This document shows, in pieces, positions 6,354 to 7,127 of a stretch of DNA of 14,528 nucleotides; position 1 is the first letter of the stretch; each line of letters opens with the position of its first letter. A model generated the notes under the pieces. The model was not told the origin of the DNA. It made no database searches and saw only the letters and a program-made list of their open reading frames with translations. The position numbers and the translations under genes were made by a program. Source of the stretch: a virus; the UHGV virus genome UHGV-0197628. One strand, given 5' to 3'.

Positions 6354-7127
6354 TCAAAAATTAGGTGAGTAACGGACCGGGGACATAGCTCCTTTTTTTC
6401 TTAATTCATCTGGTATTTTTTTTCCAAGATAAAGATTTGCTATTTCAGGTGGGGCTTCTCGACCTTCAAAACCATAGCGAGAACTTTGTGTTGCCTCAAA
6501 GTCCGGATCCTCGTCCCAGTATTTCATCGTAGGGAAATTTTCACGTGTTGATTTGAGCCATTTATCAGCAATGAAAACCCCTCGAACGATCCCCCTTACA
6601 GTAGCAAGAATGACTTCTGCTTGGCTGGCGCGAGAGACATTAATGCGCCAGCTAAATCGAACCGCATCATAAAGCTCTGAATCCTTTGCACTTCTGTTAA
6701 CGGAAATCATTAATGCTTTATGATGAAATGTTATGGTTTCGGGTTGATATGTTGCTATCAACTCTTTGACATGCGCGGCGCCGAATTCATTGCTGCCAGC
6801 ACCATTCATGATATTCGTTAACCCAGGGTAGGCATCAATAAGTGCTGCTTCAACTTCGTACGCCGTCTTTTCATCAGTCATTCCATGTCGATGGATGACA
6901 TGGATAACCTCAAGTCCTGCTAACCTTATTTCTCTAATTTGCTTTAGCTTGTTGCTCAGTAACTCGTCATCATCAGTCGCTGCCACTTCACCGCGCATAT
7001 GGGCAAATACGCGGTTACCTTTGCCTTTCCCTACATAGAAGGTGCTTCCGTCCCTCGGATCAATCAATCGGTATACATACCAGCCAAGGTGTTCAATTAC
7101 TCCAGAAGGAAACTCAGTAATATCCAT
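6354..7127 (-). CDS. GIY-YIG-motif nuclease-like protein with an uncharacterised C-terminal domain (candidate defence gene)
   Basis: 257-aa product from ATG 7125-7127 ([43 protein letters not shown]...). Residues 16-21 (WYVYRL) and 30-35 (FYVGKG) have GIY-YIG spacing, followed by R/H/E residues. The upstream TTG start of the track ORF (7178) was rejected. The gene is AT-rich relative to the tail module. Confidence 0.65.

Follow-up and report, generated by a model that had tools for sequence, protein, structure and literature searches.

A PD-T4-3/CMoRE gene with an intact GIYxY-YIG nuclease in the slot behind the tail-fibre invertase of an e14-like prophage

PD-T4-3 came from a functional selection in the Escherichia coli pangenome, which yielded systems placed in prophages, Mu-like ones among them, and including a GIY-YIG nuclease (PMC9519451). 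The terms "PD-T4-3", "ECOR68" and "e14" are absent from the main text of that paper; the first finding of the system in E. coli ECOR68 is given by Liu et al., who renamed it CMoRE (PMC12923530). CMoRE protects against T2, T4 and T6 by about five orders of magnitude, and growth remains normal at high multiplicity. Defence is direct and non-abortive, and in vivo T4 DNA is depleted in the presence of CMoRE with host DNA left intact (PMC12923530). The protein binds and cleaves DNA containing 5hmC or glucosyl-5hmC, not DNA containing C or 5mC. It cuts at CN11/N9G, leaves 2-nt 3' overhangs and needs two modified cytosines, beyond which cleavage has almost no sequence requirement (PMC12923530).

[quoted passage not shown] The C-terminal domain was described as a new fold for which no sequence or structural homologue was found (PMC12923530). 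An extra tyrosine in the nuclease motif defines the GIYxY feature, and CMoRE was inactive once Y17, Y19 or Y31 had been mutated (PMC12923530). Most members carry a negatively charged insert in the alpha2-alpha3 loop. When four acidic residues of this 15-residue loop were replaced by alanine, CMoRE became more active, cut ordinary DNA and was toxic; this autoinhibition is known from mutant 4A, made in the O157:H7 protein with its DDDD run at that place (PMC12923530). Defence was severely impaired by the tetramer-breaking exchange V92S/L96S or by deletion of the beta1-beta2 loop. The 85%-identical APEC O1 protein showed the same ligand position and assembly, and from the native promoters the O157:H7 gene was strongly and the APEC O1 gene weakly active (PMC12923530).

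Some breadth of substrate has been reported for the family. CMoRE acts weakly on arabinosylated phages (PMC12923530), and an independent study found that a 48%-identical homologue from Capnocytophaga cuts T4 DNA when it is modified, leaves the unmodified DNA of T4-GT7 uncut and attacks Mu DNA as well at high concentration (PMC12366544). In a second independent study, on the clinical isolate NILS69, deletion of the native gene raised the plating of LF73_P1 and LF73_P3, and K-12 with the NILS69 gene on a plasmid withstood four Tevenvirinae phages (10.1101/2024.12.20.629700). The PD-T4-3/CMoRE protein is therefore already known, publications from 2022 to 2026 having covered its structure and substrate as well as the defence phenotype.

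Modification-dependent cleavage is also the business of two other groups of enzymes. McrA (EcoKMcrA), an HNH nuclease that acts on 5mC and 5hmC, sits in the e14 element of E. coli K-12 in the very slot after pinE that is treated here, and it is likewise annotated as a type IV, methyl-directed enzyme without a partner methylase. Enzymes of the PvuRts1I/AbaSI family join a PD-(D/E)XK nuclease fold to an SRA-like sensor and, similar to CMoRE, cut at a fixed distance between two modified cytosines, leaving short 3' overhangs. Their substrate class is that of CMoRE, namely 5hmC and 5ghmC, not 5mC or C, whereas CMoRE differs from them by its GIY-YIG nuclease and by a sensor fold without found homologues (PMC12923530). 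CMoRE is thus modification-dependent like the PvuRts1I family and McrA and is a member of neither. With UvrC and the I-TevI-type enzymes it has the catalytic core in common, but not the homing-endonuclease architecture, and it is set apart from both by the extra tyrosine (GIYxY), the 15-residue acidic insertion, the tetramer and the modification-reading domain.

The window, i.e. the whole stretch of 14,528 nt that was analyzed here (UHGV virus genome UHGV-0197628), contains an intact and full-length gene of this type (Table 1). An earlier note on this DNA had placed a GIY-YIG-motif protein at 6354-7127; the ORF list gives exactly these boundaries and adds the strand, unstated in the note, which is the minus strand. 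Translation from the ATG at 7127 yields a protein of 257 amino acids, and an alternative start at 7178 would add 17 residues. We took the ATG at 7127 as the start because the corresponding RefSeq protein begins there and because the crystallized CMoRE chains align from this ATG, both of them matching the first residue of the window protein with their own residue 6. The description of the gene as lying downstream of the invertase is right with regard to position but not to transcription, as the two genes converge, the stop codon of the invertase occupying 6291-6293. The ORF is real. Upstream of it lies non-coding DNA that is presumed to bear the native promoter, since it accompanies the gene in 816 genomes and since native-promoter constructs of CMoRE are active (PMC12923530). 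A promoter and terminator consensus scan found no sigma-70-like site on the minus strand upstream of the gene and no intrinsic terminator between the convergent genes, and a clear ribosome-binding site was not found upstream on that strand.

Table 1. Features of the CMoRE cassette and its borders in the window
Feature	Position	Strand	Basis and remarks
pinE-type serine invertase	5739..6293	+	Pfam Resolvase and HTH_7; fixed left neighbour of the slot
Hairpin repeat, copy 1	6293..6334	+	its first base is the last one of the invertase stop codon; lies between the convergent genes; direct repeat D7
PD-T4-3/CMoRE coding sequence	6354..7127	-	257 aa plus stop codon (6354-6356); ORF list, profile and sequence matches
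Putative C-terminal modification-sensing domain (approximately aa 125-257, including Y127)	6357..6755	-	gap-free alignment to the crystallized chains
N-terminal GIYxY-YIG nuclease domain	6783..7127	-	Pfam PF22945 over aa 28-110; residues from translation
Acidic lid-loop run D-D-D-E (codons 52-55, alpha2-alpha3)	6963..6974	-	translation; plus-strand sequence ctcgtcatcatc
Presumed native promoter region	7128..7318	-	non-coding, upstream of CMoRE
Hairpin repeat, copy 2	7319..7352	+	far edge of the cassette; related to copy 1

Family membership was evident from several searches. The PADLOC model for PD-T4-3 (PDLC04031) was covered over all of its 256 positions (1-256) with an E value of 2.4e-140, and phrog_5356 matched the protein end to end. 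A sequence search of the PDB returned the pairs 9U75/9U8D and 9U7U/9U7Z, gap-free over residues 1-257, with E values of 3.7e-172 for 9U75 and 1.1e-150 for 9U7U. The window protein has 253 of 257 residues (98.4%) in common with the CMoRE protein of E. coli O157:H7 (9U75/9U8D) and 219 of 257 (85.2%) with that of APEC O1 (9U7U/9U7Z), and it is the same, without any difference, as WP_000355484.1 of E. coli 2014C-3075. Length, GIYxY-YIG motif, acidic lid loop, oligomer-interface residues and Y127 of the O157:H7 and APEC O1 proteins all recur in it. The four substitutions against the O157:H7 protein are, with the window residue first, T51/A, E55/D, Q169/K and N197/H. T51 and E55 are located in or beside the acidic loop, where the run of four acidic residues is kept, Q169 and N197 fall into the sensing domain, and E55 and N197 are also found in the APEC O1 protein. 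No effect of these substitutions on function is expected.

The N-terminal part of the protein has the features of the published nuclease domain. An HMM search, as proposed in the earlier note, brought up the GIY-YIG model LEM-3_GIY-YIG (PF22945), which matched residues 28-110 with 54.2 bits against a cut-off of 27, whereas the general Pfam model GIY-YIG (PF01541) stayed below its cut-off (13.9 versus 22.6 bits). The GIY-YIG-like motif noticed in the sequence is present in the translation and, with the PF22945, PADLOC and PDB matches, far beyond chance. It reads W16-Y17-V18-Y19-R20-L21 and then F30-Y31-V32-G33-K34-G35-K36-G37-N38-R39. The distance of ten residues that had been given between these two strings is in fact eight; 11 residues separate Y19 from Y31 and 13 separate Y17 from Y31. 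With G15-W16-Y17-V18-Y19 and Y31-V32-G33, a third tyrosine stands between the two usual ones, as in the published GIYxY-YIG arrangement. All residues named in the published work were found in the translation, i.e. Y17, Y19, Y31, the acidic run DDDE52-55, R80, V92, L96 and Y127. The acidic run, D52-D53-D54-E55, is the same as in the APEC O1 protein.

When the window protein was aligned with that of APEC O1 and with a 46%-identical jumbo-phage homologue (Serratia phage Moabite), E93 and N105 proved invariant, in contrast to E91; together with R39, E93 and N105 are the conserved Arg, Glu and Asn of these three proteins. The "conserved E" that had been noticed after the motif is therefore most probably E93, accompanied by N105, since E93 persists in the jumbo-phage homologue and E91 does not. 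Judged by this conservation, E93 and N105 may form the catalytic pair. Used by itself as a query against PDB sequences, the nuclease domain retrieved no further GIY-YIG structure, so the kinship of the CMoRE nuclease with UvrC rests on the published structural comparison.

For the C-terminal part of the protein neither a Pfam nor an NCBIfam family was found, and no NCBIfam family was found for the protein as a whole. The earlier statement that about 170 residues without recognizable motif follow the nuclease motif holds as regards the lack of a match, but the unmatched part is shorter, approximately 147 residues (aa 111-257), about 130 of which make up the C-terminal domain. Residues 125-257 align without gaps to both crystallized chains and Y127 is kept. 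On the strength of this alignment, the domain would qualify as a modification-sensing domain, the Y127 contact included.

Two further traits of the family concern the company of the gene. CMoRE acts as a single component, and accordingly the gene for the identical protein has varying neighbours, comprising a retron Ec67 gene, two hypothetical proteins or, in the window, an FRG-domain protein. As a type IV enzyme it has no cognate methyltransferase; in the window the invertase and the FRG-domain protein flank the gene, and the Pfam scan of six window proteins found no methyltransferase domain. As far as sequence can tell, the window gene thus possesses each of the testable features that define PD-T4-3/CMoRE. 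Hence we regard it as almost certain that the gene is PD-T4-3/CMoRE and encodes a direct anti-phage nuclease for DNA containing 5hmC or 5ghmC. This allele with its four substitutions would be expected to behave like the characterized proteins and to be expressed.

The mechanism proposed for the window protein is taken from experiments on 85-98%-identical proteins. CMoRE would assemble as a tetramer, a dimer of dimers, and the edge of its C-terminal domain would hold 5-hydroxymethylcytosine or glucosyl-5hmC. A dimer would read two modified cytosines 21 bp apart, upon which the GIYxY-YIG domain, with Mg2+ or Mn2+, would cut both strands at the fixed distance CN11/N9G and leave 2-nt 3' overhangs. 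The acidic loop, DDDE52-55 in this protein, would lie over the active site and exclude unmodified host DNA by charge repulsion. Degradation of T-even DNA would then occur early and the cell would survive, resulting in direct defence and not in abortive infection.

The DNA to the left of the gene is that of a prophage tail module. Genes for the baseplate and a tail fibre come first, then an invertible tail-fibre segment of 1.8 kb and the invertase, and the module is approximately 97% identical to that of e14-like cryptic prophages of E. coli (RefSeq ymfQ, ycfK, tfaP, tfaE, pinE). The invertible segment (3827-5677) has inverted repeats of 20 nt at its ends (3827-3846 and 5658-5677), which are 90% complementary, and it carries alternative tail-fibre C-termini and assembly genes on opposite strands beside the invertase. 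The invertase ORF is listed as 5703-6293; we place its start at 5739 (MLIGYVRV) because a 555-nt pinE is annotated in related E. coli loci. Homology of the window to K-12 ends exactly at the pinE stop codon. In the e14 element of K-12, the gene directly after pinE is mcrA (locus L004, 7347-8180), annotated as a type IV methyl-directed restriction enzyme. McrA and the window CMoRE have no sequence homology, and mcrA lies on the same strand as pinE whereas the CMoRE gene is convergent with it.

The content of this slot varies between genomes. In E. coli 2014C-3075 an identical CMoRE gene is followed by a retron Ec67-family gene, in another genome CMoRE is followed by two hypothetical genes, and a further one has an HNH endonuclease and AAA ATPase pair with an FRG-domain gene and is devoid of CMoRE. 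In O157:H7 strain TR01, the slot contains a CMoRE pseudogene and after it an AraC gene and then a P4-like satellite. The CMoRE gene with its flanks was present in 865 of 5426 complete E. coli genomes at 90-99.9% identity, and in 816 of these 865 at least 80% of the query was covered. The G+C content, about 58% in the baseplate genes, is lower in CMoRE (43%) and in the accessory genes beyond (32-40%). Accessory defence cargo at the end of a prophage typically has such a setting, and the position after pinE fits a defence function. The whole arrangement of the window was found in none of the complete E. coli genomes, in which there was also no place that covered at least 80% of 5600-9700 or of 9000-14528; one of these genomes covers 89% of 7128-10900 at 87.5% identity.

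Given that the window copy is nearly identical to crystallized CMoRE, it carries little weight as a discovery, and what the published work on CMoRE provides is a validation of the sequence-only reasoning in the earlier note. The comparison also indicates that e14-like prophages have a slot for type IV restriction enzymes behind their tail-fibre invertase. Two unrelated enzymes of this type occupy the one e14-type slot, McrA in K-12 and CMoRE in the window and in roughly one sixth of complete E. coli genomes. What may be new is the hairpin-bounded cassette, not the CMoRE protein.

The cassette is enclosed by two related hairpin repeats, the 18-nt cores of which are 94% identical. Copy 1 folds with -22.5 kcal/mol (z -4.5), and copy 2 with -17.4 kcal/mol (z -1.55), a value indistinguishable from that of shuffled sequences. 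In a genome without CMoRE (L002), window positions 6296-6333 and 7316-7353 both align to a single stretch of 38 nt. As this genome has one hairpin copy and no gene, CMoRE behaves as a unit of about 1 kb between two copies. The hairpin with about 100 nt to its right (approximately 7316-7420) is a multi-copy element of prophage ends. It was present in 5408 of 5426 E. coli genomes, with a median of three places per genome; in C600 it marks the right end of Qin, and in an O121 strain a prophage end by prfC. It is mostly unannotated, and PGAP sometimes calls a capsid-protein fragment there. At the gathering threshold, no Rfam family was found for the flanking hairpins or anywhere else in the window, and the element has no T-run. 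The idea that the hairpins are recombination joints for the exchange of defence cassettes, those with type IV restriction enzymes included, behind the invertase seems quite unlikely to us. Alternatively, they could be terminators that were duplicated by chance, or the element could be a relic.

How the gene itself should be read was weighed against three other explanations. The earlier note had offered a free-standing GIY-YIG homing endonuclease, which would spread by cutting a specific sequence in alleles without it. phrog_314, annotated as homing endonuclease, matches the protein weakly (E 0.0021), full-length homologues in jumbo phages carry the depositor label "putative homing nuclease", and the cassette is present or absent between the hairpin repeats. 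However, those labels are unverified annotations, Pfam found no homing-endonuclease DNA-binding modules in CMoRE, and neither the C-terminal DNA-binding modules nor the intron or intergenic homing context of I-TevI-type enzymes are found here; instead the gene lies in a prophage defence slot. The C-terminal domain reads modified cytosine, and cleavage is almost independent of sequence beyond the two modified cytosines (PMC12923530). Homing is also contradicted by the published biochemistry, in which the host genome is left untouched and the phenotype is phage restriction. The homing alternative did not survive this comparison and we consider it extremely improbable. The defence reading of the same note fared better, in that a single-gene anti-phage GIY-YIG nuclease is exactly what has been published for PD-T4-3/CMoRE, and the window protein is 98.4% identical to a crystallized member. 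Its proposal that the C-terminal domain confers target recognition is borne out by the binding of 5hm-dCTP to this domain in the crystals of the family (PMC12923530). Among the catalytic mutants it had suggested, those of Y17 and Y31 have been published with loss of activity, but R39 is not named in the main text of that paper (PMC12923530).

Specificity might have shifted by way of the four substitutions, e.g. towards Mom-modified adenine or arabinosyl-hmC. The family does show plasticity, as seen in the cleavage of Mu DNA by the Capnocytophaga homologue and in the weak action on arabinosylated phages, and the substitutions Q169 and N197 fall into the sensing domain. Yet only four differences from the O157:H7 protein exist at all, N197 is common to the APEC O1 protein, and the latter, at 85% identity, has an unchanged ligand position and assembly, so that a shifted variant appears very unlikely. 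An inactive or silent relic, in which CMoRE is unexpressed or its function was lost with decay of the prophage, has somewhat more in its favour: related genomes have the e14-like prophage in a cryptic form marked by pseudogenes and truncations, the TR01 copy of the gene is a pseudogene, the consensus scan gave no promoter on the CMoRE strand and APEC O1 CMoRE is weak from its native promoter (PMC12923530). The last point and the TR01 pseudogene mean that activity in the source organism is not guaranteed. On the other side, the window ORF is full length with all functional residues kept, and many genomes conserve a protein identical to its product. The chromosomal native copy of NILS69 is active against phages (10.1101/2024.12.20.629700), and the O157:H7 gene is strongly active from its native promoter (PMC12923530). 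We therefore judge a relic to be unlikely and retain the reading of the gene as that of a probably functional PD-T4-3/CMoRE nuclease.

Full-length CMoRE homologues also occur in lytic jumbo phages of Serratia, Pectobacterium, Pantoea, Pseudomonas (OBP) and Klebsiella (N1M2), where the depositors labelled them homing nuclease or hypothetical protein. Identity in these matches (H56-H72) is 38-46% over about 254 residues, the C-terminal domain included. In the Moabite homologue (locus L006, 2501-3265) the catalytic residues and Y127 are kept and the acidic loop is mostly lost. The jumbo-phage proteins may serve in phage-against-phage exclusion of hmC phages.

Beyond CMoRE, the window encodes an FRG-domain protein of 445 amino acids (7659-8996, minus strand; Pfam PF08867, E 1.7e-22), which matches the PADLOC candidate family PDC-S15 (E 1.2e-98) and phrog_4962. 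In other E. coli genomes, DNA about 90% identical to this gene adjoins the HNH and AAA ATPase pair. A literature search returned only two passing mentions of PDC-S15 and no experimental study, and this is probably the least understood gene of the window. It is followed by a P4-type tyrosine integrase (9663-10901, plus strand). ARAGORN found no tRNA in the window and hence there is no tRNA attachment site within it beside the integrase. Within 9000-14528, a near match in complete E. coli genomes was obtained for the integrase part only. In O157:H7 TR01, a homologous integrase begins the P4-like satellite at the same position, with other cargo. In the window, the integrase gene leads into a complete Hachiman system on the plus strand, consisting of HamA (10885-11811; PADLOC E 8e-135) and HamB (11814-14345; PADLOC E 1e-279).
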